Assembly: GCF_965118875.1 (NCBI RefSeq) | Contig: NZ_CBCPJD010000009.1 | Coordinates: 109,688 to 149,687, forward strand | Length of the DNA stretch: 40,000 nucleotides | Source of the DNA: Morganella psychrotolerans | Lineage (GTDB): Bacteria; Pseudomonadota; Gammaproteobacteria; Enterobacterales; Enterobacteriaceae | Reading direction: 5' to 3' | Part shown: one piece after another, positions 8,154 to 31,488 of the stretch | How positions within the stretch are numbered: position 1 is the stretch's first letter | How the letters are laid out: every line of letters starts with the position of its first letter | Notes under the pieces: model-generated | The model's input: only the letters and a program-made list of their open reading frames with translations | Told to the model about the DNA's origin: nothing | The model's database searches: none | Position numbers and translations under genes: made by a program

Positions 8154-8241
8154 GGAGGGGTGGCCGAGCGGCTTAAGGCAGCGGTCTTGAAAACCGCCGA
8201 TGGGTAACCATCCGAGAGTTCGAATCTCTCCTCCTCCGCCA
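8154..8241 (+). tRNA. serT: tRNA-Ser (anticodon UGA)
   Basis: Hand-folded, 88 nt. Acceptor GGAGGGG/CTCCTCC (one G-U pair), discriminator G, encoded CCA. D arm GCCG..GGCA. Anticodon stem GCGGT/ACCGC with loop CTTGAAA. Long variable arm GATGG-GTAA-CCATC. T arm GAGAG-TTCGAAT-CTCTC. Confidence 0.92.
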
Positions 8242-8415: not shown

Positions 8416-9603
8416 ATGAAGCTAACAGACATGGCAATCAAGCGGGCAAAGCCAAAAGAAAAGGCTTATACATTGGCAGATGGCAATGGTCTGTCTTTGT
8501 TAGTGGAAACGAACGGCTCGAAAGGCTGGCGGTTTCGTTACCAGTTCGCCGGCAAGACTAAAATGATCTCTCTTGGTATTTATCCTGTAGTGACATTAAA
8601 TGAGGCCAGATCTAAAAGAGATGAAGCCAGAAAGCTGGTGGCTAACGATATCAATCCAAGTGAAGCCAGAAAAGCAGAGAAAGCGGCATCAATCAGCCAA
8701 TCTGAAAATACCTTTAAAAATATCGCACTTGAATGGTTTGGCGGGCGTAAAGACCGCTGGTCTGTCGGATATCGTGACGACATGATGGACGCATTTGAAA
8801 AAGATGTATTTCCTTATATAGGTGATCGCCCGATCACTGATATCAAGCCCCTGGAATTATTAGAAGTGCTTTCCATTATGGAAAAGCGTGGCGCTACAGA
8901 GAAACTAAAGAAAGTTCGTCAACGCTGCGGGGAAGTATGGAAATACGCCATTATTACCGGACGGGCAGAATATAACCCGGCACCGGATTTAGCGGGTGCG
9001 TTTATCCCGCACAAACGTGAACATTATGCTCATTTGATGGTTAGTGAATTACCTGATTTTCTGAGTTCCATTGATAAATACATGGGCAGCCAAATTGTCA
9101 GAACTGCACTGAGAGTTTTAATTTTGACAGGCGTTCGCCCTGGTGAATTACGCAAAGCGGAATGGTCGGAAATTAATTTTGATAAGGCAATATGGGAAAT
9201 ACCCGCTGAAAAAATGAAGATGCGGCGTCCTCATATTGTGCCACTGTCGGAACAGGTTATTGAGTTACTGAAACAAATACACCCGATTAGCGGCAGTTAC
9301 CAATATATTTTCCCGAGCCGTACCGATTACAAAAAGCATATATCGGATATGGCACTGAATACCATGATCCGCCGGATGGGTTACGGGGGCAGGGCTACCG
9401 GTCATGGCTTTCGTCATACCATGAGCACCATTCTACATGAGCAAGATTACAATACCGCATGGATTGAAACACAGCTTGCTCATGTAGATAAAAACAGTAT
9501 CAGGGGCACGTATAACCATGCCCTTTATTTGGATGGACGAAAAGAAATGCTCCAGTGGTACGCAAACTACATGAATGATCTCGAATCCGGGAAAGTGCAA
9601 TAA
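8416..9603 (+). CDS. int: Tyrosine integrase, P4-like (N-terminal DUF4102/arm-binding type)
   Basis: 395 aa. The N-terminus (KAYTLADGNGLSLLVETNGSKGWRFRYQFAGK) is typical of P4-family integrases. Catalytic blocks are LTGVRPGELR, HGFRHT and the Tyr in IRGTYNH. It is adjacent to a tRNA gene. Confidence 0.9.
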   Translation: MKLTDMAIKRAKPKEKAYTLADGNGLSLLVETNGSKGWRFRYQFAGKTKMISLGIYPVVTLNEARSKRDEARKLVANDINPSEARKAEKAASISQSENTFKNIALEWFGGRKDRWSVGYRDDMMDAFEKDVFPYIGDRPITDIKPLELLEVLSIMEKRGATEKLKKVRQRCGEVWKYAIITGRAEYNPAPDLAGAFIPHKREHYAHLMVSELPDFLSSIDKYMGSQIVRTALRVLILTGVRPGELRKAEWSEINFDKAIWEIPAEKMKMRRPHIVPLSEQVIELLKQIHPISGSYQYIFPSRTDYKKHISDMALNTMIRRMGYGGRATGHGFRHTMSTILHEQDYNTAWIETQLAHVDKNSIRGTYNHALYLDGRKEMLQWYANYMNDLESGKVQ

Positions 9604-14899: not shown

Positions 14900-15328
14900 C
14901 TATTTTTTGTTTGCTAAATTAATCAACTGAATTGTTAAAAGGCATAAGTGTAAAAATGACGTAGTGGATATAATCAACGCCACTGAAGGCAAAAAAACTA
15001 TATCTAAGTTTGAAATCAATAGGATGCCAATAAAAAATAGAATTCCTAATTCAACAAAAATCAGTGCATACAGAGTTATAATAGATAGCATATACCCATA
15101 TCTCTGCATTTTTGCAAAATTGTTGTTTTTTATTCCGAGCATAAATGTTAATGCAGCTATCAGAACCGCAATCAGGGTACCGGAATATGAACTCATTGTT
15201 GCGCCAAGTGCTTCTCTATGAAGAGAAAAAGAAAGTTCAGGTGCGATCCAGTTGTGTGCAAAAATGGTTATTAAGTAAGGAGTGGCAAATAGAATAATAG
15301 CCGAAAAAATTTTGTATAAAGAGTCCAT
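14900..15328 (-). CDS. rexB: RexB-like four-TM membrane protein
   Basis: 142 aa with four hydrophobic segments. Blocks LGATMSSYSGTLIAVLIAALTF and YALIFVELGILFF match my recollection of lambda RexB (144 aa). Strong SD AAGGAGG. It lies directly downstream of the rexA-like gene. Confidence 0.75.
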   Translation of the reverse strand: MDSLYKIFSAIILFATPYLITIFAHNWIAPELSFSLHREALGATMSSYSGTLIAVLIAALTFMLGIKNNNFAKMQRYGYMLSIITLYALIFVELGILFFIGILLISNLDIVFLPSVALIISTTSFLHLCLLTIQLINLANKK

Positions 15329-15358
15329 TCCCCCTCCTTTTTGTCATATTCATCTGAG

Positions 15359-16201
15359 TTAAGAAAGTTCTTCTTTTATTTCTTTGTAACTTTCGATTAT
15401 AACAGGTTTCATGCGGATAAAGGCAGTGTATATCTCATTTGCGATTTCTGCATTAGAAGATTTTTTAGGTAAATTACACCCAACGTGTCCCTTACCATCT
15501 AGATAGTATTCGGTTAATACATCAGCGGCATTTTCTCTTGCCTTTATGTTTATTTGGTCAATAGAGTCATAGGTGCTGCTTATTATTTCCTTAGATATCC
15601 CTTTGATATCCTTTCTCATTTTTGGCTTTAATGTTATTTCAATTGAATTCAATAGTTCATCAGATGCACTGCTAACACCCAAGGTGCGAAGTAGTGTTTT
15701 TATCATGGTTTTATCGGATTCTATTCTCAGTGTTGTTCTTCCGATGAATGTCATATTGAGGGCATCAGCCTTTGTCACTCCTTTCATCAAAGGCTCGACG
15801 ATTAGGCTTTCTGATTCTGAAAGCAACTTTTTACCTTTAACGAAGTCAGGTAATTCCCTGATTTTTGGCCCCAGAAACGAAGAGGCAAAACCAATTACAC
15901 CGTCATCAATAAAAACAAACGATGGGAATCCTAGTAACTCATCGTCAGCCAAGCTGTCGCGGATATCTTTTACTGAGTTGTTTGTTTTATTAATTTTATT
16001 TATTAAATCAGAATCATTCGTTTTTGTGAATAAAAATGATTTAATATCAATGCGATGCATATAGGTGTAGTAATCTTCGCATTGAAATGAGTGGCTAGCT
16101 TTAGAAATGACTAGATCTTCAAATAGCTTGTCAAGATTGACTTTCCTCTTCGCCTTCGTTTTGTCGTCTTGCGCATAGTAAGCCCAAAAACTAACTTTCA
16201 T
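15359..16201 (-). CDS. rexA: RexA-like protein
   Basis: 280 aa counted from ATG 16201 (SD AAGGGA 5 nt upstream). Blocks FLFTKTND, SLADDELLGFPSF, FIGRTT, LTEYYLDGKGH, NAEIANE match my recollection of lambda RexA (279 aa). It is in the cI operon. Confidence 0.75.
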   Translation of the reverse strand: MKVSFWAYYAQDDKTKAKRKVNLDKLFEDLVISKASHSFQCEDYYTYMHRIDIKSFLFTKTNDSDLINKINKTNNSVKDIRDSLADDELLGFPSFVFIDDGVIGFASSFLGPKIRELPDFVKGKKLLSESESLIVEPLMKGVTKADALNMTFIGRTTLRIESDKTMIKTLLRTLGVSSASDELLNSIEITLKPKMRKDIKGISKEIISSTYDSIDQINIKARENAADVLTEYYLDGKGHVGCNLPKKSSNAEIANEIYTAFIRMKPVIIESYKEIKEELS

Positions 16202-16292
16202 AACCATCCCTTTTAAAATAGTAGAGTATTGTTTAGTATCTATTTCTCTGGCATTGTTAAGTTATCAAATTGATATTATTATTTTTTTACCA

Positions 16293-16312
16293 CACCCTAA
16301 AACGTGTCGTCA
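16293..16312 (-). repeat. Distal copy of the 20-bp direct repeat flanking orf96
   Basis: caccctaaaacgtgtcgtca is 19/20 identical to 16606-16625. On the coding strand it begins with TGA, which is the stop codon of orf96. Confidence 0.85.
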
Positions 16313-16600
16313 CTGTTCTGAAATCATGACCATAAACACTCCGGCATCAAGTGGGTCAGCATCAATAGAAAGATTTTCAGACTCCCAATACATCCCGGAA
16401 TCTTCCTCATCTGAAGCCCATTCCTCTGCGTCAGGGTGTATCTCCATTACTATTTCAGGCTTAAGTTTTTCGGCTAAATTTTTTATTTTACCATAATAAT
16501 CAAATAGATACATTTTATGGCGTTCGCCGAACTCAATTTGTAGAGGAAATAAGCGTTCCTGAATAAAGTTTCTTAAGTCATCTCTTGATTTGAAGTTCAT
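16310..16600 (-). CDS. Small strongly acidic protein between cI and rexA (96 aa)
   Basis: ATG 16600 is preceded by AGGGTGAAACC, an SD provided by the proximal repeat. By my count it has 22 Asp/Glu against 10 Lys/Arg. The C-terminal half reads DAEEWASDEEDSGMYWESENLSIDADPLDAG. Confidence 0.6.
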   Translation of the reverse strand: MNFKSRDDLRNFIQERLFPLQIEFGERHKMYLFDYYGKIKNLAEKLKPEIVMEIHPDAEEWASDEEDSGMYWESENLSIDADPLDAGVFMVMISEQ

Positions 16601-16605
16601 GGTTT

Positions 16606-16625
16606 CACCCTAAAGCGTGTCGTCA
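16606..16625 (-). repeat. Proximal copy of the 20-bp direct repeat flanking orf96
   Basis: caccctaaagcgtgtcgtca lies 5 nt after the cI stop and 5 nt before the orf96 ATG (coding-strand order). It is 313 bp from the other copy. Confidence 0.85.
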
Positions 16626-16630
16626 GGCTG

Positions 16631-17338
16631 TCAGCCGTGGAACTTATACTTGATGGACTGACTAACCAGCACCTTAGCCCGAATAGACACACCCTCAATA
16701 CTGGATTCATCAAGGTGCCATGTCTCATATCGCGGATTATCTGATATCACGGCGAGGCGCTTGTACTGCATTTGCAGCCGCTTTATATAAATCTGGTTGT
16801 CCAGCACGAAAACGTAAATCCCGTCACCATCAAAATGATCTACGGTTACATCAACGAATATCTGATCCCGTGGCTCGAACGTCTCAGCCATTGAGTCGCC
16901 ACGAACAGTTATCATCTTGATTGTTTCTGCTGGTCTGCCGCCAAAAAGCCGCTTCGCTTCCTCTGCTGAATACTCAATAGCCGTAATGGTTTCAATGAAA
17001 TCATCCTGAACCATCACACCCGGCCCCGCGCTTGCTTCAACATCGAGTATTTCGACTTTGTAAGTCTTTATAACAGCAGGAATTGTCAGTTCAGCCTTAA
17101 CTGAATAGGTATCGCCGGCCGGAAGTAACGGGTTATCACCATCGCCGTATGCCAGCCATTCTGCAGGTACAGACAGTGCCCCGGCTATCTCAATCAGCTT
17201 TGTTGATGTCTGAGCGCTTCCGGATTCAATTTTCTGGATTGCAGCCTGTGATACGCCAATAGCATCCCCAAGCTCTTTCTGAGAGAGATTAGCGTGCTTC
17301 CTGGCGAGTTTTAATCGTTGTGCAAGTGTCGTTTTCAT
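16631..17338 (-). CDS. cI: CI-type repressor (XRE HTH + S24 LexA-like autopeptidase)
   Basis: The HTH is LSQKELGDAIGVSQAAIQKIESG. The S24 catalytic Ser is in VRGDSM and the Lys in IYIKRL. A candidate Ala-Gly cleavage site is in EASAGPG. ATG 17338 is preferred over the upstream TTG at 17353. Confidence 0.88.
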   Translation of the reverse strand: MKTTLAQRLKLARKHANLSQKELGDAIGVSQAAIQKIESGSAQTSTKLIEIAGALSVPAEWLAYGDGDNPLLPAGDTYSVKAELTIPAVIKTYKVEILDVEASAGPGVMVQDDFIETITAIEYSAEEAKRLFGGRPAETIKMITVRGDSMAETFEPRDQIFVDVTVDHFDGDGIYVFVLDNQIYIKRLQMQYKRLAVISDNPRYETWHLDESSIEGVSIRAKVLVSQSIKYKFHG

Positions 17339-17344
17339 AATCGA

Positions 17345-17373
17345 AATATACAACTTCGGTTGTTTTTAGGCAA
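17345..17373 (-). promoter_or_regulatory. pRM-like promoter with operator; probably gives a leaderless cI mRNA
   Basis: Minus strand reads TTGCCT (17373-17368), a 17-nt spacer, then TATATT (17350-17345). The cI ATG is 6 nt after the -10. The perfect palindrome ACAAC-TTCG-GTTGT (17350-17363) fills the spacer. Confidence 0.55.
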
Positions 17374-18511: not shown

Positions 18512-18619
18512 ATGAAATCCCGGATTAAGGCGTTGTTGATGTTTGGATATAACCACGGGCTGATCGGGGCTGACACAGTAAGTTTTTGGTTCAGGAAGTT
18601 GGATTTGAGGGCGGCATAG
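18512..18619 (+). CDS. Possible small coupled ORF (35 aa)
   Basis: ATG 18512 is preceded by AGGTGA. It encodes MKSRIKALLMFGYNHGLIGADTVSFWFRKLDLRAA. Its TAG overlaps the GTG of the primase-helicase (TAGTG). It is below the ORF-track size cutoff. Confidence 0.35.
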   Translation: MKSRIKALLMFGYNHGLIGADTVSFWFRKLDLRAA

Positions 18620-20505
18620 TGACACCTAACGAATTATCAGAAAAATTATGGGACAGTGCCGATCGGGTAGCGAAGTATCTGCTGCCGAACGGTCGCGTTG
18701 ATGGTCACGAATGGGTTGCCGGAAACGTCGGTGGTGAATCCGGGAAAAGCCTGAAAATCAATCTGGCCGGCAAAAAAGTCTGGTCTGATTTTGCAACCGG
18801 TCAGACTGGTGATCTGCTGGATCTTTGGGTCGCGACCCGGAGTTGCTCATTGCACCAGGCGATGACTGAGGCGAAGGAGTTTATGGGTATCCGGGATGAG
18901 GATCACCACTTTGCGGCGAAACAGAAAAAAGCGTTTTCAAAACCAGACCGCAAAGCACTGAGTAAAAATCTGCGTAAACCGGATGGGTGCTACGCCTATC
19001 TGGAGGGCCGGGGTATTTCGCGTGAGGTTGCCGAGCTATTCAAGGTCAGTGACGCGGTGGTGTGGTCTCACGATGACAGCCGGGAACTTCCGGCGGTGGC
19101 ATTTCCCTATGAGCGTGACGGTGAGTTGCTGCAGGTAAAGCGGATCGGCACAGAACGTCCGGGCGGGAAAAAAATAATCATGGCAGAAGCAGGGTGTGAG
19201 CCGTGTTTATTTGGCTGGCAGGCACTGAGCCATGATGCACGGGCTGTCATCATTTGTGAAGGTGAGATTGATTGCCTGAGTTACCGGCAGTATGGGTTAT
19301 CGGCGCTGTCGGTCCCGTTCGGCGGCGGTAAAGGGGCGAAGCAGCAGTGGATTGAAACAGAGTTTCACAATCTGGATCGATTTACGGAGATCTGGCTGTC
19401 TCTCGATAACGATGACGTGGGGCGCGAAGCGGCAAAAGAAATAGCTTCCCGGCTGGGTGAGTACCGCTGCCGCATGGTTAACCTGCCGCACAAAGATGTC
19501 AACGAATGCCTTCAGGCCGGAGTGAGTCAGAAGGACATTGTGTCCTGCCTCGAAACGGCTGCCTATTTTGACCCGGAAGAGCTGTTTTGTGCCCGTGAGT
19601 TTTATCAGGACACCTGGGATGCTTTGTACGGAAAAGAGCAGTATTTATTCCGGACACCGTGGGAACCGATGAACTACAACTTTAGTTTCCGGGAATCGGA
19701 GCTGACTGTGCTTAACGGTGTGAACGGACACGGGAAAACAGAAATTGCCGGACACATTGTCTGTGAGGCTATGAGGCAGGGCGTAAGATCCTGTGTAGCT
19801 TCCCTGGAACTCAAACCCGGCATGCTGCTGAAGCGCCTGACGCGGCAGGTTACCTGCCAGGCAAAGCCACCTCAGATTGAGTTTGAGTCGTCCTTCAAAT
19901 TTTATGATGATCGGCTATGGCTGTTTGGACTCACCGGAAATGCGAAAGGTGAGCGCTTGCTTGAAATCTTTTATTACGCCAACCGTCGGTACGGGATCAA
20001 GTTATTTATCGTAGACAGTCTGACTAAGGTTGTTTGCGGGGATGATGATTATAACGGGCAGAAAGCATTCATGGACGCTCTATGTGATTTTAAGAACAAA
20101 ACAAACAGCCACGTAATTTTAGTCACGCACAGCCGGAAATCAGACAGTGAAGATAAGCCCACCGGAAAAATGGACGTGAAAGGGACAGGGGCGATTACTG
20201 ACCTTGCTGACAACGTGATGATTATCTGGCGTAACAAGCGCCGGGAAAAGGCACTGGAAAAACAAAAATACCACAGCCAGCTGACCGACCAGGATCAGGA
20301 AGCTATCGAAAAGCCCGGGTCGATGTTATTGCTGGAAAAACAGCGGAACGGGGAAGGGTGGGAAGGTGGTACCGGATTATATCTTGATTCTGCTTCACAT
20401 CAGTTTCTGACTAAAGAAGATGCTTCACCTTACAACTATTTCGCCAACATGCCGGCTTCAGATTATGACGAGGTGTGGAAAATGCAGAATGTAACTGAAT
20501 ACTGA
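18619..20505 (+). CDS. Bifunctional primase-helicase (Toprim + DnaB/RecA-like ATPase)
   Basis: Toprim-like blocks are VIICEGEIDCLS and WLSLDNDDVGREAA. Walker A is LNGVNGHGKTE and Walker B is LFIVDSL. The start is probably GTG 18619 (SD GAGGG); the ORF-track start at 18586 is a TTG. Confidence 0.8.
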   Translation: MTPNELSEKLWDSADRVAKYLLPNGRVDGHEWVAGNVGGESGKSLKINLAGKKVWSDFATGQTGDLLDLWVATRSCSLHQAMTEAKEFMGIRDEDHHFAAKQKKAFSKPDRKALSKNLRKPDGCYAYLEGRGISREVAELFKVSDAVVWSHDDSRELPAVAFPYERDGELLQVKRIGTERPGGKKIIMAEAGCEPCLFGWQALSHDARAVIICEGEIDCLSYRQYGLSALSVPFGGGKGAKQQWIETEFHNLDRFTEIWLSLDNDDVGREAAKEIASRLGEYRCRMVNLPHKDVNECLQAGVSQKDIVSCLETAAYFDPEELFCAREFYQDTWDALYGKEQYLFRTPWEPMNYNFSFRESELTVLNGVNGHGKTEIAGHIVCEAMRQGVRSCVASLELKPGMLLKRLTRQVTCQAKPPQIEFESSFKFYDDRLWLFGLTGNAKGERLLEIFYYANRRYGIKLFIVDSLTKVVCGDDDYNGQKAFMDALCDFKNKTNSHVILVTHSRKSDSEDKPTGKMDVKGTGAITDLADNVMIIWRNKRREKALEKQKYHSQLTDQDQEAIEKPGSMLLLEKQRNGEGWEGGTGLYLDSASHQFLTKEDASPYNYFANMPASDYDEVWKMQNVTEY

Positions 20506-20514
20506 GGATAAAAA

Positions 20515-21294
20515 ATGAAACTCGAAAGCGCATTAAAACAATTTCATCCGAAATCACCGACATTCAGCGACAGCTCAAACTCTACGGCACCGGACAGACT
20601 GAAAGGCATGGATTCAGCCGCGGCAATGGGGATGGCGTCACAAAAGGCGGCGTTCGGGATGCATGCGTTCTTTGGTAAAAATGATGTCAGCGCGGAAGAC
20701 GATAATATCACTGTCAAAATGCTGACTCTGTATGCAATGAAAACAGCCCCGAAGTTGGTGGTTAAAGCTGCCGGCAATCGTCTGGCTCAGTGTATGGATA
20801 AACTTGCAACGGCTGCCTTTGCCGATTATGCCCGTTCAGCTGGTTCGGCCTGTGAGTGTCAGGACTGTGGCGGAAAGGGATTGATTTATAGCCGGAAAGA
20901 TGTAGTGAAACATCCGGGCATCATCAACATGGAAGGTATAGAGATTGTTGAGCCGATTATCCGTAATGAACTGGTAGGCGAGCTGTGCATGACCTGTAAC
21001 GGGAAAGGACAATTAACCTACCGGTGTCAGTGCAGAGGCCGGGGTAAAGTTCCCGATGAAGAGCAGACGTTGTTACAAGGCGTTCCGGTTATTAAAAATT
21101 GCCCGCGTTGTTCCGGAAGGGGTTACCGGCGGGTGCCATCGTCTGTGGCATACAATGCAATTAAGCACCTGGTTCCTGATTTGACTCAATCCAGCTGGTC
21201 ACGAAACTGGAAACCATTTTACGAGGAGTTAACAGGAAAGTGTTATATTGAGGAGAATAAAGCAGAGATATTTTTCAATAAAGTCACTCGCTAA
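20515..21294 (+). CDS. Q: Late-gene antiterminator Q (zinc-finger type)
   Basis: 259 aa. It is the last gene of the rightward early operon. It has four Cys motifs: CQDCGGKG, CMTCNGKG, CQCRGRG, CPRCSGRG. This fits the phage antitermination protein Q family as I recall it. Confidence 0.65.
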   Translation: MKLESALKQFHPKSPTFSDSSNSTAPDRLKGMDSAAAMGMASQKAAFGMHAFFGKNDVSAEDDNITVKMLTLYAMKTAPKLVVKAAGNRLAQCMDKLATAAFADYARSAGSACECQDCGGKGLIYSRKDVVKHPGIINMEGIEIVEPIIRNELVGELCMTCNGKGQLTYRCQCRGRGKVPDEEQTLLQGVPVIKNCPRCSGRGYRRVPSSVAYNAIKHLVPDLTQSSWSRNWKPFYEELTGKCYIEENKAEIFFNKVTR

Positions 21295-21335
21295 TTATTG
21301 AATGAATTGTACCGGTTTAATGCACTTAACCGGTA

Positions 21336-21364
21336 TTGATATTAATTAACTTAAATGAAATAAT
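21336..21364 (+). promoter_or_regulatory. Candidate sigma70 promoter downstream of Q
   Basis: TTGATA (21336-21341), a 17-nt spacer, then AATAAT (21359-21364). It is preceded by the inverted repeat accggtt-N10-aaccggt (21311-21334). Confidence 0.4.
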
Positions 21365-21390
21365 TATGCATAACTGTGAGGTGGCTAGCT

Positions 21391-21981
21391 GTGAAGAAAA
21401 TTAAACTCTTATTATGTGTATTGATTGGCATTGGCGGAACCCTGGCTTATCAGTGGGTTTTCCCGCCATTTGGTAATCCGTACTATTTTTTATCCCCGAA
21501 AATAACTATCGGCGAACCTATCGATATTCCTATCAAGCTCTATGAGAAGGGTTATGAAGTTGATTTTGTGTTTTGGAATACACCATTACCCGAAGGAAGA
21601 ATGTTTTTTATAACGCCTTTGCAGTCACCATCCCCTCATGTTATCTTGAAGCTAAGTAAAAACAAAGACGTTACTGATACTGATATTTTTTATCCATCTG
21701 ATTTATTTGCAAAGAATGGTATTCTTGGTGACATTAACAACGAACCAATATTCAATGTTGAATTGTATAGAATAAATTCTGATTTAACAGAGAGCATGAT
21801 ATCAAGCAGAATAATAACCAAGAATTCACCTGGTGGGGTAGATTCACTATCTCCATTGACTAGTAACAAGTCTGATTATGGTCAATATCGTATAAAAGTT
21901 AAAGTTATGGGAGACTGGCCGCAATTAAAAATTGACGGATTAAGTTATTTTGTTTCTATTAGCACCTATTTCAATAAATAA
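21391..21981 (+). CDS. Signal-anchored / exported beta-rich protein, unknown function (196 aa)
   Basis: GTG 21391 follows GAGGTGG at 7-nt spacing. The N-terminus (KKIKLLLCVLIGIGGTLAYQ) is a signal peptide or membrane anchor. The rest is rich in alternating beta-type sequence. Very AT-rich: 17 G+C in 21661-21720. Confidence 0.6.
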   Translation: MKKIKLLLCVLIGIGGTLAYQWVFPPFGNPYYFLSPKITIGEPIDIPIKLYEKGYEVDFVFWNTPLPEGRMFFITPLQSPSPHVILKLSKNKDVTDTDIFYPSDLFAKNGILGDINNEPIFNVELYRINSDLTESMISSRIITKNSPGGVDSLSPLTSNKSDYGQYRIKVKVMGDWPQLKIDGLSYFVSISTYFNK

Positions 21982-21986
21982 AAATC

Positions 21987-22943
21987 ATGGAACCAAAAAA
22001 TAAAACTGAAGATTTACTTGTATACATAGCAAATCAGGATGACACAAAGATAGAGCATAAAAAAATACTGATTGAGCACAGTGCTTATCCAAGTAAAAGA
22101 AACAACGCTACCGTGGGTGCTTGTCAAACCTGCTTTCCACCAGATGCGAGGACAGAATTTGTTGAGCATATCCTGCGTTCGTTGGGGACACGATATACGG
22201 TGACAATCTATATTGCTTACCCAGGAACACCGCTAAATGATAATGATGGTGAGCCATATATAAAAAATGGTAAACGAGTTGTTTCAGTTGCTGGGCATAT
22301 GTGGTTTCATGTTCATGAACTAGAGCCAATATCAAAGAAAATAAATTCAGATAAAAGTAAAGCATTCGGCTTTATGCCTAAAACGTCATTACCATTCGGT
22401 GATGGAATGGTTATTAATAAAGACACTATCCATTATGAAAACCCTCATTACCGGAGAATTATTGAAATCAGCGAGGAACAGCATCAACAGTTATTAAATT
22501 ACGGAAAATCAGCACAAGAAGGAACCAACCCGGATTTTAGTTTGCTCTATGTCGGCTCATCGAATAGCTGTATTGATTTCACCTGGAAATCACTTCGCAG
22601 CGCATCATTGCTTCCTGATCCGATTGAGTGCGGTATGTTTGATTTACGGCGCGAACATTGTGATCCCCGCGTGGTGATTGACCATAAGAGAAAAGGCACA
22701 TTTGAGGGGATGATGCTTGTGGGGAATAACATTATTCATGTGAGGTCTATAAAAGATCCCTATCCTCACAGTGAACTAAATATGGAAATTATTAATGACC
22801 TGCCATCTGACAGTATATTACGAGGATCAGACCCAAAATCAGAACCATTAAAAGAGAAGAAAGAAGTTAAAGTTATTGATACACCGCCCAGCCCAAATTA
22901 TGGTGCCGACCAGTTTTTTGGGGATTGGAATAAATATAGTTAG
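21987..22943 (+). CDS. Unknown 318-aa protein with His-then-Cys motif order (possible permuted papain-fold enzyme)
   Basis: No signal peptide. The motifs are VAGHMWFHVHE...AFGF and later LLYVGSSNSCIDFTWKSL. This recalls the PPPDE / LRAT / YiiX pattern (His box, then Y-x4-5-N-x-C-x-x-F). The functional call is tentative. Confidence 0.55.
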   Translation: MEPKNKTEDLLVYIANQDDTKIEHKKILIEHSAYPSKRNNATVGACQTCFPPDARTEFVEHILRSLGTRYTVTIYIAYPGTPLNDNDGEPYIKNGKRVVSVAGHMWFHVHELEPISKKINSDKSKAFGFMPKTSLPFGDGMVINKDTIHYENPHYRRIIEISEEQHQQLLNYGKSAQEGTNPDFSLLYVGSSNSCIDFTWKSLRSASLLPDPIECGMFDLRREHCDPRVVIDHKRKGTFEGMMLVGNNIIHVRSIKDPYPHSELNMEIINDLPSDSILRGSDPKSEPLKEKKEVKVIDTPPSPNYGADQFFGDWNKYS

Positions 22944-23008
22944 TTCCCAGGGGGATATGACACGCTTGTTGGATGTTTAATTTATAGCTGTGCATTTATA
23001 CATGTTAG

Positions 23009-23037
23009 TTGCTTTTTGCATAAATCCGTTATATCAT
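23009..23037 (+). promoter_or_regulatory. Candidate promoter (possible pR'-like late promoter or small-RNA promoter)
   Basis: TTGCTT (23009-23014), a 17-nt spacer, then TATCAT (23032-23037). A second -10-like TAAATA sits at 23041-23046. It lies about 50 nt upstream of a strong terminator. Confidence 0.3.
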
Positions 23038-23085
23038 CTCTAAATAGTGGGCATCTTACGGTTAGCGCACTACGAAAATCCTAAG

Positions 23086-23109
23086 CCTCGCGATCGCGGG
23101 GTTTTTTTA
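23086..23109 (+). terminator. Rho-independent terminator
   Basis: cctcgc-GATC-gcgggg is a 6-bp stem (23086-23101). It is followed by TTTTTTTAT. Confidence 0.8.
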
Positions 23110-23294
23110 TACCTGAAATTTAAAGGTGAGAAATCCCACCTTTAACTATTCTCATGCTGTGAAATGGGCGGCTGGTGGGTGTTGATAGCACCTTCCCAGC
23201 CATTCACCCGTTCTTGACGATCACGGATAAACCAAGGCCCACTGCTTATGTCGACAAAGCGGAGTAAGCCTACCAAAAAAGGTTCTCCTGATCT

Positions 23295-24332
23295 ATGAAA
23301 AACCCTGTTAATTTAAACAGTATAAATTTAGTCAATGATGACTCTCTCTGCTACATAAAGACACTTCCAGACAATTGCATTGACCTAATAGCAACTGACC
23401 CGCCTTATTTCCAAGTTAAAAGCTGTAGCTGGGATAATCAGTGGGAAAATGTCGGCGCATATTTATCATGGCTGGATGAAATGCTGGTGGAGTTCTGGCG
23501 GGTATTGAAGCCGAACGGCAGTCTGTATTTATTTTGCGGATCGCGGTTAGCGTCAGATACTGAATTATTAGTGCGGGCGCGGTTTGATGTCCTGAGCCAC
23601 ATTATATGGGCGAAACCATCAGGACCGTGGCGTAGACAGAATAAAGAAAGCCTGCGTAGCTACTTCCCGTCAACAGAACGGATCTTGTTTGCCGGGCACT
23701 ACCAGGGGCCGGTCATGGGTAAAGGCAGTGAATATCATCAGCGGCGGGAAGAATTGAAGAAAAACGTATTTACCCCGCTGATTGAGTATTTTAAGCAGGC
23801 ACGTGATGCGCTGGGTATTACAGCAAAAGATATTCAGCAGGCGACCGGTAAGCAGATGTCCTCTCATTGGTTTGGGTATAGTCAGTGGCAATTACCGAAT
23901 GAGGCTGATTACCTGAAACTGCAGGTACTGTTTCAACGTGTAGCGGCAGATCATCAACGAAATAACCCGCTAAGCCGTGAACACGGTGACCTGGTCAGTG
24001 AGCAATACGCTCTCCGGCGTGAATATCACGAATTATCAGATCAGTATCAGCTGCTGCGTCGTTACTTTGCGGTATCGGTCGATGTGCCTTATACGGATGT
24101 GTGGACGTTTCCACCGGTTCAGTATTATCCCGGAAAGCATCCGTGTGAAAAGCCATCCGCAATGATGGAGCACATTATAAAAGCCAGCAGCCGTGAAAGT
24201 GATCTGGTCGCTGATTTCTTTATGGGGTCAGGCGCAACACTGAAAGCCGCGCTGAAGCACAACCGGCGCGTTCTGGGTGTGGAAATGGAAACGGAACGGT
24301 TTGAGCAGACTAAGAAAGAGATAATGTATTGA
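23295..24332 (+). CDS. Orphan DNA methyltransferase (beta-class N6-A/N4-C, motif IV before motif I)
   Basis: 345 aa. DPPY (LIATDPPYF) is near the N-terminus. The AdoMet motif FFMGSGATLKAA is near the C-terminus. No adjacent endonuclease-like gene is recognisable. Confidence 0.85.
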   Translation: MKNPVNLNSINLVNDDSLCYIKTLPDNCIDLIATDPPYFQVKSCSWDNQWENVGAYLSWLDEMLVEFWRVLKPNGSLYLFCGSRLASDTELLVRARFDVLSHIIWAKPSGPWRRQNKESLRSYFPSTERILFAGHYQGPVMGKGSEYHQRREELKKNVFTPLIEYFKQARDALGITAKDIQQATGKQMSSHWFGYSQWQLPNEADYLKLQVLFQRVAADHQRNNPLSREHGDLVSEQYALRREYHELSDQYQLLRRYFAVSVDVPYTDVWTFPPVQYYPGKHPCEKPSAMMEHIIKASSRESDLVADFFMGSGATLKAALKHNRRVLGVEMETERFEQTKKEIMY

Positions 24333-24430
24333 TATCATTTAATTCCCGCACAGCTCCGGAGTAGCCCCTGTCATTGGTCATTGATTCAGTGACTAACGAA
24401 CATCATCGATAACATATTGATTTAATTACC

Positions 24431-24472
24431 GGAGGTCACAGTGACCTCCCGTGATACGGGAAAATCTCGTAT
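24431..24472. repeat. 19-bp palindrome followed by a hairpin element also found at 27268
   Basis: ggaggtcac-a-gtgacctcc occupies 24431-24449. atacggg-aaaat-ctcgtat follows at 24454-24472. Confidence 0.6.
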
Positions 24473-24530
24473 GTATGTAACACATTGATATTGTTCCGAT
24501 GCCGGAATTCCGATAGCGAGGTAATGATGC

Positions 24531-24689
24531 ATGACGAATTTGAAGGATTCTAAATATCCGACCAGAGCCGATGCAGCCAAAGCACCGCCTTATACTGAGC
24601 GCGATAGGTTATCGGAAGAAGAACGGGCAGAGCGAAGCCGGAAGTTTAATGCCGCATTGCTGTTTGGTAATGGATATTTTGAGCTTTAA
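24531..24689 (+). CDS. Possible small protein (52 aa) upstream of the holin
   Basis: The ATG is preceded by GAGG (24518-24521). It encodes MTNLKDSKYPTRADAAKAPPYTERDRLSEEERAERSRKFNAALLFGNGYFEL. It is followed by a 9-bp-stem hairpin (24694-24718). It is below the ORF-track cutoff. Confidence 0.35.
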   Translation: MTNLKDSKYPTRADAAKAPPYTERDRLSEEERAERSRKFNAALLFGNGYFEL

Positions 24690-24918
24690 TTCCAACCTGT
24701 AACGATAGCTTACAGGTTCAACTCTCCGGAATTTCCGGATAGTTCGATTTGCTTATTTGGTACCCTCACCGATGAGGGCACCATCCCCACCATATCGAGA
24801 ACATCCTCGTAATGGTTCCAATACGCCGCCACAGAATCCTGAACAAACAAACGTAACCATCGCAGAGATACTGTGCGCGGCACCCTATTAACTGAATCCT
24901 CCACAACAGGGGGCGAGT

Positions 24919-25236
24919 ATGAATCATATGAATAAAACCCCTGAATTTTGGGAGCAGGTACTCAGCTACCTTTCTCAATATAAAGACCAAGGCGTATTTG
25001 CTGCTCTCGCTGGTTTGGTTGCCGGCTTGCGTGGGATGTACAACGGCGGCGGATGGAAGAAGACACTGCTGGACGCCGTTCTGTGTGCAGTCCTCGGTTG
25101 GTTTGCTAAAGACCTGCTGGCATTTATGGGTCTGAATCAGGATCTGGCCTATATCACCAGCGTCATGATTGGCTACTGGGGCGTAGAGAAGGTAAGCGGC
25201 ATGATTAAAGGTAAAGCGGGAGTGAATAATGAGTAA
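24919..25236 (+). CDS. S: Class I holin, lambda S family
   Basis: 105 aa. Blocks LRGMYNGGGWKKTLLDAVLCAVLGWF and LAYITSVMIGYWG parallel lambda S. SD AGGGGG lies 5 nt upstream. Two in-frame Met codons (M1 and M4) allow a possible dual start. Confidence 0.85.
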   Translation: MNHMNKTPEFWEQVLSYLSQYKDQGVFAALAGLVAGLRGMYNGGGWKKTLLDAVLCAVLGWFAKDLLAFMGLNQDLAYITSVMIGYWGVEKVSGMIKGKAGVNNE

Positions 25237-25645
25237 ACCAGCACGCGGCGAACGCAACAATAATCCGGGTAATATCGACTACAATCCACGTAATCCGTGG
25301 CAAGGACAGTTGCCGCATGACCCAAAAATCGAATCCCGATTCTGCCGGTTCCAATCACCTGAGTATGGCATCCGGGCAATCTATAAATTGCTTCAGACAT
25401 ATCAGACAAAATACGGTCTGAGTTCAGTCAAAGCCATCATCAACAAATACGCACCACCGAATGAAAACAACACCGGCGGTTACATCAACCGCGCTGCTGC
25501 TGATATCGGTATCGGCATTAATGACCACCTGAACACCAAAGACAAAAAGACCGGCATTGCGCTGGCGACTGCGATTGTCGGCGTTGAGCTGGGATATCAA
25601 CCGTATGGTGCAGATGTGTTTGAAAAGGCGTGGGGATTGCTTTAA
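25229..25645 (+). CDS. Putative endolysin (small P5-like / RNNNPGNI-motif peptidoglycan hydrolase family)
   Basis: 138 aa. Its start overlaps the end of the holin gene. It carries the ERNNNPGNI motif. The call rests mainly on its position between holin and spanins. Confidence 0.6.
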   Translation: MSKPARGERNNNPGNIDYNPRNPWQGQLPHDPKIESRFCRFQSPEYGIRAIYKLLQTYQTKYGLSSVKAIINKYAPPNENNTGGYINRAAADIGIGINDHLNTKDKKTGIALATAIVGVELGYQPYGADVFEKAWGLL

Positions 25646-29540: not shown

Positions 29541-31488
29541 TGCATGGCAGCAATTCACCCGCGCACTGGGTCATAAACGCGCTGTTATCAGACCTCCGGA
29601 AGCCTTATCGCTGAGCGAATGGGCAAACAAATACGCAGTGTTGTCGAAAGAGAATGCCGCACAGACCGGGCGATTCCGGTCATTCAAATATCAGGACGGC
29701 ATGATGGATGCCATTACTGACCCTGCGGTAACAAAGGTGTCGGTGATGAAATCTGCCCGTGTCGGCTATACAAAGATTCTTGACCACGTTGTCGGCTATT
29801 ACCTTGCACATGACCCGTCCCCGATACTTGTCGTGCAACCGCGTGTGGATGATGCTGAGGACTACAGTAAAGGTGAAATAGCCCCGATGCTGCGTGATAC
29901 CCCTGTACTGAAAGCTATTGCCGGAGAGGCAAAAGCCAAAGACAGCGGGCAGACCATACTTAAAAAGCAATTCTCCAACGGCTCTAATTTAACGCTGGTG
30001 GGTGCGAACTCGCCCGCCGGCTTTCGTCGTATCACCTGCCGGATCATCCTGTTTGATGAAGTGGACGGTTTTCCGTCCGGCGGTGCCGGTTCAGAGGGAG
30101 ATCAGATTGCACTGGGTATCAAGCGCTCAGAGACATTCTGGAACCGTAAAATTGTACTGGGGTCAACGCCGACGGTGAAAAATGTCAGTCGTATCGAAAA
30201 ATCATTCAATGACAGCGACCAGCGTCATTACTGGGTGCCGTGTCCTCACTGCGGTGAATTTCAGATCCTAGAATGGGGCGGACCCGATACCCCTTACGGC
30301 ATGAAATGGGATAAAGACAAAGACGGCAACGGTCTGCCGGAGACCACGTATTACGTCTGCCGTCATAACGGTTGTGTTATTCACGACAGCGATAAATCTA
30401 TGATGATAAAAAAAGGTGAGTGGCGGACTGATCGTCCGTTTACCGGTCATGCCGGGTTTCATATCTGGGCGGCATACAGTCTGTTCCCGAATGCGGCATG
30501 GCCTAATCTTGTGGCTGAGTGGCTGGAAGTGAAAGACGACCCGTTAAGACGGCAGACTTTTATCAACCTGGTACTCGGTGAGCCGTATGAAGACCGGGGC
30601 GAAAAAGCCCTGAGCGAACAGAAATTACTGGAGCGGTGTGAGGTATGGGCGGCTGAAGTACCGGACGGTGTCACGCTTCTGACTGCCGGTATCGATACTC
30701 AGGATGATCGCTTTGAAATTGAAGTTGTCGGCTGGGGGCGCAGTGAAGAGAGCTGGTCAGTTTCGCATGATGTGATTGAAGGGGATCTGGAAACTGATGA
30801 GCCGTGGGAGCGTCTCGATGCCTACCTGAAACAAGTCTGGCGGCGGGCGGATGGTCACGGCTTCGTCATCATGGCGGCCTGCATGGACTCCGGCGGTCAC
30901 CATACTCAAAACGTGTACAACTTTTGTAAAGCGCGGCTCGGTCGCCAGATATGGGCGATCAAGGGTGAGTCGGCGCGGGGTGGCAAACGCTCTCCGATAT
31001 GGCCGACAAAGCGGATCACCTCCCGTTCAAAAACCGGGTTTAAGCCGGTGATTATCGGCGTGAATGCGGCAAAAGATGCCGTGCGCGGTCGCTTACACCT
31101 GGAGCCTCCGGAAGCCGGTGAGCCATCCCCGGCGTATATGCATTTCCCGGCAGATCGTGATTTACAGTATTTCGGGCAGATGCTGGCGGAGCGGTCGGTT
31201 GTTAAAACGGCGGGCGGTCAGCGATACCGCGTGTGGGAACAAATCCCCGGACGGGCAAACGAAGCCCTGGACTGTCGTGTATACAGCTATGCCGCGCTGT
31301 GCGGTCTGATGTATATGGGGCTGAAACTCAATGCCCTGGCTGACAATATTGCCGGTAATCCGGCACGTCTTATTGCGCCGCCGGCAGAGCCTCAGACCAA
31401 AACCAATCTGCGATTTCCCGGGGCAATTATCCCGGAACCAACCGAAGAGAAACCCAGGCGGAAGCGTATGTCTCAGCTTTTGCCATAA
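29515..31488 (+). CDS. Terminase large subunit (lambda gpA family)
   Basis: 657 aa. Blocks VMKSARVGYTK, GSTP, VPCPHCGEFQ, TAGIDTQDDRFE, NEALDCRVYSYAA parallel lambda gpA. It uses a TTG start with GGAGG 9 nt upstream. Confidence 0.9.
   Translation: MITVNRGDNAWQQFTRALGHKRAVIRPPEALSLSEWANKYAVLSKENAAQTGRFRSFKYQDGMMDAITDPAVTKVSVMKSARVGYTKILDHVVGYYLAHDPSPILVVQPRVDDAEDYSKGEIAPMLRDTPVLKAIAGEAKAKDSGQTILKKQFSNGSNLTLVGANSPAGFRRITCRIILFDEVDGFPSGGAGSEGDQIALGIKRSETFWNRKIVLGSTPTVKNVSRIEKSFNDSDQRHYWVPCPHCGEFQILEWGGPDTPYGMKWDKDKDGNGLPETTYYVCRHNGCVIHDSDKSMMIKKGEWRTDRPFTGHAGFHIWAAYSLFPNAAWPNLVAEWLEVKDDPLRRQTFINLVLGEPYEDRGEKALSEQKLLERCEVWAAEVPDGVTLLTAGIDTQDDRFEIEVVGWGRSEESWSVSHDVIEGDLETDEPWERLDAYLKQVWRRADGHGFVIMAACMDSGGHHTQNVYNFCKARLGRQIWAIKGESARGGKRSPIWPTKRITSRSKTGFKPVIIGVNAAKDAVRGRLHLEPPEAGEPSPAYMHFPADRDLQYFGQMLAERSVVKTAGGQRYRVWEQIPGRANEALDCRVYSYAALCGLMYMGLKLNALADNIAGNPARLIAPPAEPQTKTNLRFPGAIIPEPTEEKPRRKRMSQLLP

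Follow-up and report, generated by a model that had tools for sequence, protein, structure and literature searches.

The 40-kb window of Morganella psychrotolerans considered here, by which we mean the whole stretch of 40,000 nucleotides, is a lambdoid prophage integrated beside tRNA-Ser, and between the Q antiterminator gene and the methylase and lysis genes of this prophage lies a cassette of two genes that are separated by 5 nt. Gene 1 (21391-21981, forward strand) encodes a predicted immunity protein of 196 aa, with a membrane anchor at approximately residues 2-23 followed by a periplasmic beta-sandwich of the DUF5625 type, and gene 2 (21987-22943, forward strand) encodes 318 residues, plus a stop codon, that include the core of a predicted toxin family. 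The open reading frame (ORF) of gene 1 can be opened at 21376 or at 21391; the GTG at 21391 is the better supported of the two, having a GAGG Shine-Dalgarno sequence 9 nt upstream, homologues that begin at the equivalent residue and gene callers that give an identical copy as 196 aa. Two ORFs with this gap and this start had been put forward in an earlier note on the same DNA, and they are borne out.

The upstream border of the slot that holds the cassette is Q (20515-21294, forward strand; PF03589 at 7e-41, phrog_127 at 5e-88), the DNA of which is 70% identical to Q of Providencia phage PSTRCR_117lys, with similarity that stops at 21288. Backbone similarity restarts at 23157, from which point the DNA is 81-82% identical to that of Providencia and Morganella phages. 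This restart, a conserved leader followed by an N6/N4 methylase gene (23157-24332, forward strand), forms the downstream border. In PSTRCR_117lys and in Morganella phage IME1369_02 the order is Q, approximately 0.5 kb with a 64-aa ORF, methylase and then the lysis genes, and from the two breaks in similarity it follows that 1.87 kb here stands in for 0.41 kb in the related phages. The GC content of the cassette is 37% (31-33% at third codon positions, GC3) as compared with 47-48% (GC3 49%) in the flanking Q and methylase genes. Both the slot between Q and the late genes and the foreign composition had been claimed previously and both hold, the G+C counts of 17 in the 60 nt of 21661-21720 and 35 in the 60 nt of 30001-30060 being exact. 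Judged from its sequence, the cassette is foreign cargo, that is a phage moron, inserted into a conserved lambdoid backbone.

A search for near-identical DNA gave matches in Escherichia coli genomes and phages that are confined to the downstream flank of the cassette. One E. coli prophage (L096, NZ_CP102694.1, 1119-3691) has the same Q, slot, small ORF, leader, methylase and lysis backbone but holds a different cargo, a reverse-strand gene for a 148-aa hypothetical protein, and the slot therefore looks to be a recurrent cargo hot spot across genera. Close copies of the pair itself are, by sequence similarity, found in at least three mobile settings. The first is this prophage, of which the pair has an identical copy, the gene 2 product sharing 100% identity with an M. 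psychrotolerans hypothetical protein; a second prophage, in Morganella morganii (L011), bears the pair in the same slot; a copy that is 82% identical lies in another phage background, where it follows a DnaD-type replication gene on a contig that resembles a phage; and an orphan chromosomal copy is present in M. morganii between glpK and a major facilitator superfamily (MFS)/glpQ block, where a 193-aa homologue of gene 1 precedes the toxin. A search of plasmids and megaplasmids gave two matches, to RTX-type or hypothetical proteins.

With regard to expression, a sigma-70 promoter-like site, TTGATA-17-(TG)AATAAT, lies on the forward strand at 21336-21364, 42 bp past the Q stop codon; it matches the consensus at 10 of 12 positions, has an extended -10 TG and is the best sigma-70 match in 20400-25000. 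This is the promoter that had been proposed for the pair, and it may serve either as a promoter of the cassette or as the phage late promoter pR'. An intrinsic terminator (23083-23110, forward strand), with a stem at 23083-23104 of 9 GC-rich bp around a 4-nt loop and then a run of seven Ts, is the first terminator past Q and agrees with the one predicted to follow the pair. Near-identical hairpins with compensatory changes in their stems are found in three related phages (L009, L010, L011), approximately 95 bp past Q in PSTRCR_117lys, past Q in IME1369_02 and directly 3' of the gene 2 homologue in the M. morganii prophage, so that the terminator belongs to the phage backbone. Rightward transcription of the pair would start at the post-Q site and, unless antiterminated, end at this first backbone terminator, and the lysogen could thus express the pair without switching on the late genes.

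Two proposals about pR' have been withdrawn: that it lies downstream of gene 2, as the alignment upstream of the terminator is no better than that of shuffled sequence (z ~0), and that the site at 21336 is firmly pR', as homology to the post-Q region of a relative could not identify pR'. A perfect 8-bp inverted repeat, TACCGGTT-N10-AACCGGTA, is located at 21310-21335, abutting the -35 hexamer of the cassette promoter, and may function as an operator or in connection with Q. Within the 3' end of gene 2 there is a second promoter-like site, TTGATA-17-TATGGT at 22876-22904, which at 9 of 12 positions is a chance-level match; it is kept in the M. morganii prophage (L011, 814-842), and a transcript from it would be approximately 190 nt, ending at the conserved terminator, a size near that of lambda 6S RNA.

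The predicted toxin family and its exported partner

Gene 2 can be divided into three parts, all on the forward strand. Residues 1-65 (21987-22181) form a helical N-terminal region that is presumed to act in adaptor binding or loading onto a type VI secretion system (T6SS); this region is conserved only in the stand-alone forms of Morganella, Pectobacterium and Xenorhabdus, with PAAR in its place elsewhere. Residues 66-280 (22182-22826) are the toxin core, of which approximately 66-210 are the minimal core; it is modelled by AlphaFold2 (AF2) with a predicted local distance difference test (pLDDT) of 80-95 and has no Pfam model. Residues 284-318 with the stop codon (22836-22943) are a disordered C-terminal tail ending in NYGADQFFGDWNKYS (pLDDT <50), which is common to some Pectobacterium and PAAR-fused members. 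The Kyte-Doolittle maximum of the protein is 0.6 and there is no N-terminal hydrophobic helix, in line with the earlier statement that gene 2 lacks a signal peptide.

Neither protein could be annotated directly, as there were no matches in Pfam, PHROGs, PADLOC or NCBIfam. A search of a large protein database revealed 43 close homologues of gene 2 in Morganella, Pectobacterium, Xenorhabdus and Proteus, among them PAAR fusions (P0005, P0036, P0038, P0040), and the Proteus mirabilis form of the toxin is present on 196 contigs. When a profile of the toxin core was searched against 1.84 billion representatives at a threshold of E<=1e-3, 659 clusters (50% identity) were found, aligned over profile positions ~69-280. 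Within 40 diverse members of the family there are XVIPCD domains in 16, RTX repeats in six, PAAR in four and VgrG (Phage_GPD) in one, and fusions to Tox-PAAR-like and Hint domains also occur; XVIPCD (PF20410) is the VirD4 recognition signal of the effectors of the bacteria-killing type IV secretion system of Xanthomonadales (X-T4SS). A scan of one genome per species identified 228 toxin loci, mainly in Xanthomonas, Stenotrophomonas, Lysobacter, Luteimonas, Pseudoxanthomonas, Neisseria, Chromobacterium and Hydrogenophaga as well as Enterobacterales, and these loci are concentrated in taxa that bear an X-T4SS and in Enterobacterales.

Some individual members of the family have features of their own. 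The metagenomic homologue P0010 (516 aa) has approximately 230 extra C-terminal residues with their own His-then-Cys grammar (…AGHSYISIH…YGRFG…SSSNCTTH…), which may constitute a second, different Cys/His toxin domain. Some Xenorhabdus and Pectobacterium members (P0015, P0016, P0021) carry the UniProt name 'Serine protease', for which there is no supporting domain evidence. Three Stenotrophomonas loci (L063, L072, L093) contain two to three copies of the toxin domain with tails of XVIPCD length, interleaved with lipoprotein partners within approximately 8 kb, and we presume that these may correspond to published X-Tfe clusters of 'unknown function' such as Smlt0500-0505.

The candidate catalytic residues of gene 2 are conserved almost without exception in 144 representatives of the family. 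His104 (codon 22296-22298, forward strand), which may be the catalytic base and lies in the motif AGHMW, where a beta-strand begins, is His in 143 of the 144; Cys195 (22569-22571, forward strand), which may be the nucleophile and lies in the motif NSCIDF, at the N-terminal end of a helix, is Cys in 142 and Ser in the other two; and position 146 (Asp146, 22422-22424, forward strand), which may supply a third catalytic residue, is Asp or Glu in all 144. Ser100 and Tyr150 are each kept in 143. The His precedes the Cys by 91 residues, and this order, which had been noticed in the single sequence, proves to be a true signature of the family. In the AF2 model of gene 2 (pLDDT 78, predicted template modelling score 0.75) His104 opens strand 104-112 and Cys195 opens helix 194-205, the elements being, in order, five strands (His on the second), a helix, a sixth strand and the helix of the Cys.

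Gene 1 is the better placed of the two proteins. Its hydrophobic N-terminal helix has a Kyte-Doolittle 19-residue maximum of 1.89 at residue 6, and the AF2 model (pLDDT 83) consists of a helix at 2-23 and then eight strands, which matches the N-terminal anchor and beta-rich body described earlier. Foldseek with this model finds 3NKG (E=4.3e-7, probability 1.00) and nothing else that is convincing. The initial sequence search gave Morganella homologues alone, owing to word-index limits, and the family was widened by pairwise and profile searches, a profile made from the partner proteins finding 50 relatives, some of them annotated as DUF5625. PF18539 is matched by 25 of 38 family members (best 1.6e-8), the product of gene 1 alone being below the Pfam threshold for it, and the family profile when searched against PDB reaches 3NKG at E=0.002. 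By profile and by model, gene 1 is a diverged member of DUF5625, a beta-sandwich preceded by a membrane anchor at the N-terminus, so the earlier view that neither protein could be placed in a named family no longer holds for this one. The fold and sequence profile of DUF5625 (PF18539; 3NKG, from Sulfurospirillum deleyianum) are common to gene 1 and its relatives; no function has been assigned to DUF5625, the literature searched does not mention it, and its role as immunity protein for a toxin family is proposed here.

The lipoproteins of approximately 200 aa that precede the toxins in Xanthomonadales align with the gene 1 family by hhalign (97.9%, E=7e-13, 130 columns), and 16 of 26 of them match PF18539; on this profile evidence they are of the same superfamily as gene 1. 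The mode of export differs, the Enterobacterales partners having a membrane anchor and the others a lipobox, but export itself is kept, and conserved export of the partner to the periplasm is what would be expected for an immunity protein against a toxin that acts there.

The pairing of the two proteins is likewise conserved. In Proteus a homologue of gene 1 (47% identity, E=1e-65) is directly upstream of the PAAR-fused toxin, in Xenorhabdus homologues with 37-38% identity precede both copies of the toxin, and the pairwise matches to gene 1 partners range from E=1e-65 to 2e-45. An unbiased genome scan found a DUF5625-type ORF directly upstream of 74 of 86 intact toxins and directly downstream of six more, as in Iodobacter where the order is VgrG, toxin, lipoprotein; a partner therefore adjoins 80 of the 86 across genera, and the co-occurrence that the earlier note had named as a check is found. 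Immunity-first order is thus the norm in this toxin family, as it is in X-Tfi/X-Tfe operons.

Furthermore the toxin genes are linked to genes for secretion. The Pectobacterium loci run from vgrG through a DUF4123 adaptor, a small ORF and the toxin to PAAR, and in Xenorhabdus tandem pairs of partner and toxin are followed by vgrG, DUF4123 and PAAR; T6SS neighbours were verified by tblastn in every Pectobacterium and Xenorhabdus locus of this kind with enough flank. In one Pectobacterium subgroup (L004-L006, 5425-5796) the toxin is preceded not by DUF5625 but by a 123-aa ORF with approximately four predicted transmembrane segments, a polytopic protein that may be an alternative immunity protein, and in other Pectobacterium loci (L022) the DUF5625 partner is present.

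Role of the pair

It is probable, in our judgement, that the pair is a cognate effector/immunity module of a widespread polymorphic interbacterial toxin family, carried as a moron by a temperate lambdoid phage. Within this reading, sequence and model together suggest that gene 2 is most likely a type VI effector of the orphan cargo kind and gene 1 its periplasmic immunity protein. Of the three options previously offered for the pair (an immunity/effector pair, a toxin module or a defence pair) it is the first that is favoured, because the pairing is kept across genera and the toxin core recurs on PAAR, VgrG, XVIPCD and RTX carriers. The N-terminus of gene 2, approximately 65 residues, would be the part that in relatives goes with loading by VgrG, DUF4123 and PAAR onto the T6SS spike, and the core of approximately 215 residues would most likely be a hydrolase, with Cys195/His104(/Asp146) as its catalytic residues, that attacks the envelope from the periplasmic side; membrane lipid, the acyl chain of a lipoprotein or peptidoglycan are candidates for its substrate. 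Gene 1, anchored in the inner membrane with its DUF5625 sandwich in the periplasm, would bind and neutralise toxin that comes in or leaks. A lysogen would then be protected against this type of toxin, and would also be armed if its host has a compatible T6SS.

Several observations count against such a role. A search of 50,697 deposited phage genomes gave no homologue, so that there is no phage precedent among them; gene 2 itself has no PAAR, VgrG or XVIPCD domain (no Pfam match at E<=1); tblastn found no T6SS structural, adaptor or spike genes in the window; and the region contains 14 promoter-like sites where 12 +/- 4 are expected, which is the level of chance. An immunity gene upstream of its effector is also the rarer order for T6SS pairs. 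Searched against PDB chains, a profile of the core alone gave no match (the first such search had been contaminated by XVIPCD tails and was repeated with the core alone), and Foldseek with the gene 2 model gave none in PDB or BFVD, solved permuted NlpC/P60 structures, TseH included, being among those not matched; overall the enzymatic fold of gene 2 has no significant match by Pfam, PDB profile, hhalign or Foldseek. Finally, T6SS presence varies in Morganella and the 2026 survey of it did not cover M. psychrotolerans (PMC13129497). As there are no T6SS genes in the window, gene 2 is read as an effector of the orphan cargo type, and its delivery in this host is something that we infer.

The earlier comparison of gene 2 with permuted papain-fold enzymes thus finds no significant support in the profile and structure searches. 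Nor did Pfam give a permuted-papain match in 42 divergent members of the family, and hhalign of the core with PLAAT3 and DESI2 gave a probability of 0.4%, the DESI2 query having matched DESI1 structures only as a paralogue would (~1e-9). The faint Pfam matches that occur among 51 cores are to Lnb_N/DUF4105 (0.0029, two members), CHAP (0.02) and Peptidase_C97 (0.039). The grammar of gene 2, 'helix ... h-h-Y ... N-x-C-x-x-F', resembles the NCEHF of PLAAT3, verified against the sequence of 4DOT, and the NCNTF of DeSI-1, and its order of elements is presumably that of PLAAT3 as well. On balance we lean, from motifs and model, towards a permuted papain-like Cys/His hydrolase. If it is one, an acyl-ester or lipid target would be somewhat more likely than a peptidoglycan amide, given the analogy with the permuted clades and the polytopic membrane ORF found in place of DUF5625 in the Pectobacterium subgroup. 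A more doubtful view is that the core has an unrecognised Cys/His(/Asp) fold that is not papain-like, and that it belongs to a large toxin family (at least 659 clusters, with type I, IV and VI delivery and a DUF5625 immunity fold) which is spread by phage, with lysogeny switching 'friend or foe' identity and expression wired into the Q/late-promoter region.

The explanation that comes closest to the effector/immunity module, and which is compatible with it, is that the cassette is defensive cargo only: the host would lack the matching VgrG or adaptor, gene 1 would shield the lysogen from Morganellaceae neighbours, such as Proteus mirabilis, whose injected toxin is a PAAR-fused version of this one, and gene 2 would be a passenger or be kept because the pair moves as a unit. 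The absence of T6SS genes from the window fits this explanation, as do the orphan copies of the pair that sit far from T6SS genes and the PAAR-fused homologue that, with its 47%-identical partner, is very common in Proteus. Most M. morganii are without a T6SS, and effector/immunity loci kept in T6SS-negative strains have been read as retention of immunity (PMC13129497), both of which count in its favour. Gene 2 is intact, however, with all the conserved residues present, it keeps the N-terminal region that is common to the VgrG- and DUF4123-linked forms, and cross-protection between immunity proteins is uncertain at 47% identity. A purely defensive cassette would seem rather improbable, with a protective gene 1 as a live alternative that the effector/immunity reading can accommodate.

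It would seem very unlikely that the pair is a weapon or helper linked to lysis, in which the toxin builds up in the cytoplasm and is freed by the holin so that it speeds lysis or hits bystanders in the manner of Shiga toxin (Stx) or a colicin. The position between Q and the holin and endolysin genes is indeed the Stx slot, and gene 2 has no signal peptide, but a co-expressed periplasmic immunity protein would oppose a role in helping lysis, gene 2 lacks any domain for receptor binding or translocation by which it could be taken up from outside, and all of its relatives outside phages are tied to contact-dependent secretion systems. The terminator, moreover, closes the cassette upstream of the late genes, and the pair also occurs outside phages.

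Slightly less credible again is a pair for anti-phage defence or abortive infection, or a classical toxin-antitoxin module that would stabilise the prophage through addiction. Defence systems are frequent among prophage morons and the same prophage carries a RexA-like gene, but PADLOC gave no families at E<=1 for either protein, which tells against the defence pair that had been among the options, a partner that faces the periplasm misfits a cytoplasmic antitoxin, and the PAAR, VgrG, XVIPCD and RTX fusions throughout the family indicate export rather than intracellular action. The pair is not a structural phage protein.

Comparison with known systems

The closest described likeness is to Tox-Act1 of Salmonella, a His-then-Cys T6SS phospholipase that is reported to be active in the periplasm and to be paired with an immunity protein associated with the membrane, and to TseH, for which phospholipase activity is also reported (PMC12994826). 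Tox-Act1/Imm-Act1 and TseH/TsiH of Vibrio cholerae, both with a permuted NlpC/P60 core, are likewise antibacterial T6SS effector systems that act in the periplasm and in which the His comes before the Cys (H43/C151 in Tox-Act1, H104/C195 in gene 2). The toxicity of Tox-Act1 is confined to the periplasm; fusions to PAAR and Rhs are a further point of likeness, neither core is recognised by ordinary hidden Markov model libraries, and weak labels of DUF4105/Lnb_N and Peptidase_C97 are attached to some Tox-Act1 homologues (PMC12994826, S3 table) and to the gene 2 family alike. The partners differ, since Imm-Act1 is encoded downstream and has two transmembrane helices whereas the gene 1 family is a DUF5625 beta-sandwich, usually encoded upstream. 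Furthermore the published homologue tables (PMC12994826, S3/S4) contain no Xanthomonas, Stenotrophomonas, Chromobacterium, Hydrogenophaga or Proteus, which are the genera that dominate the gene 2 family, and none of the accessions of that family. When compared by published tables, partner type and gene order, gene 2 is not demonstrably of the Tox-Act1 clade.

X-Tfe effectors are encoded downstream of the genes for their lipoprotein X-Tfi immunity proteins and most are predicted to act in the periplasm (PMC6759196, PMC6536674). As in the published pairs XAC2609/XAC2610 and Smlt3024/Smlt3025, many members of the toxin family are of the X-Tfe type, with an N-terminal toxin core and a C-terminal XVIPCD, and they sit just downstream of a lipoprotein partner, which is the published order of X-Tfi and then X-Tfe. 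Gene 2 has no XVIPCD and so is not itself an X-Tfe; to our knowledge Morganella is not known to have an X-T4SS. The Smlt3024/FrpC family was considered as a home for the pair and set aside, as the partner profile misses Smlt3025 (6PDK) and FrpD (5EDF) and the core profile matches no PDB chain.

Stx and the other morons found between Q and the lysis genes are likewise foreign cargo of low GC content, with a terminator before the late genes and varied cargo on the same backbone. Stx is an AB5 toxin aimed at eukaryotes, whereas the cargo here is a predicted antibacterial effector/immunity pair, and the cassette lies upstream of the first terminator, unlike the cargo of Stx phages, which is downstream of it. 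The orphan T6SS effectors of the PIX, MIX, FIX and RIX classes (bioRxiv 10.1101/2023.07.16.549128) also stand alone away from T6SS genes, often on mobile elements that include prophages, and are also modular, with an N-terminal part for delivery and a C-terminal toxin. Gene 2 was set apart from the PIX class by description, PIX having approximately 140 residues and downstream immunity as against approximately 65 residues and upstream immunity here.

A polymorphic toxin with its immunity protein is a well-known kind of system; the finding is thus not categorically new, and to have called the pair an undescribed system was an overstatement. What is new is a toxin family that is unnamed and uncharacterised, a predicted function for DUF5625 and the presence of a complete pair in the Q-proximal slot of a temperate phage. 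The DUF5625 fold, solved in 2010 (3NKG), becomes a candidate immunity partner of a toxin domain, and the family spans RTX, type VI and many Xanthomonadales type IV effectors of the sort that are listed as of 'unknown function'. Its candidate catalytic centre, His104/Cys195/Asp146, is open to direct mutation. Lysogenic conversion could rewire interbacterial killing and kin recognition among the Morganellaceae, whose genera Morganella, Proteus and Providencia meet in gut, food and wound habitats, and if the host has no compatible T6SS the cassette would amount to acquired immunity delivered by a phage.

Prophage surroundings

The tRNA-Ser gene (anticodon TGA, 8154-8241) is the sole tRNA gene and is followed directly by a tyrosine integrase gene (8416-9603), and at this junction the prophage probably has its attachment site and its left end; to the left of tRNA-Ser are the host genes tfoX, a yccS-like gene and helD. 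Upstream of Q lies a primase/helicase gene (18586-20505). Beyond the cassette the methylase gene (23295-24332, forward strand; PF01555 at 9e-41) is followed on its 3' side by a holin gene (24919-25236) and by an endolysin gene (25229-25645).

No Rfam family was matched in 20400-25000. The leader in front of the methylase gene (23157-23294, approximately 140 bp and non-coding) has no Rfam match and an RNA fold z-score of only -1.9; it is 82-88% conserved in Providencia and Morganella phages, and the same leader is present at 81% in five E. coli chromosomes, where it is unannotated.

A lambda-like immunity region is found on the reverse strand at 14900-17353 of the window. It begins with a CI-type repressor gene (16631-17353, reverse strand; HTH_3 and Peptidase_S24), which is followed by the RexA-like gene (15359-16207; PF15969 at 3e-56) and then by an ORF (14900-15328, reverse strand) that is a candidate for RexB. 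This immunity region sits within a second AT-rich block of the window, at 12-16.5 kb, where the GC fraction is 0.34-0.42.

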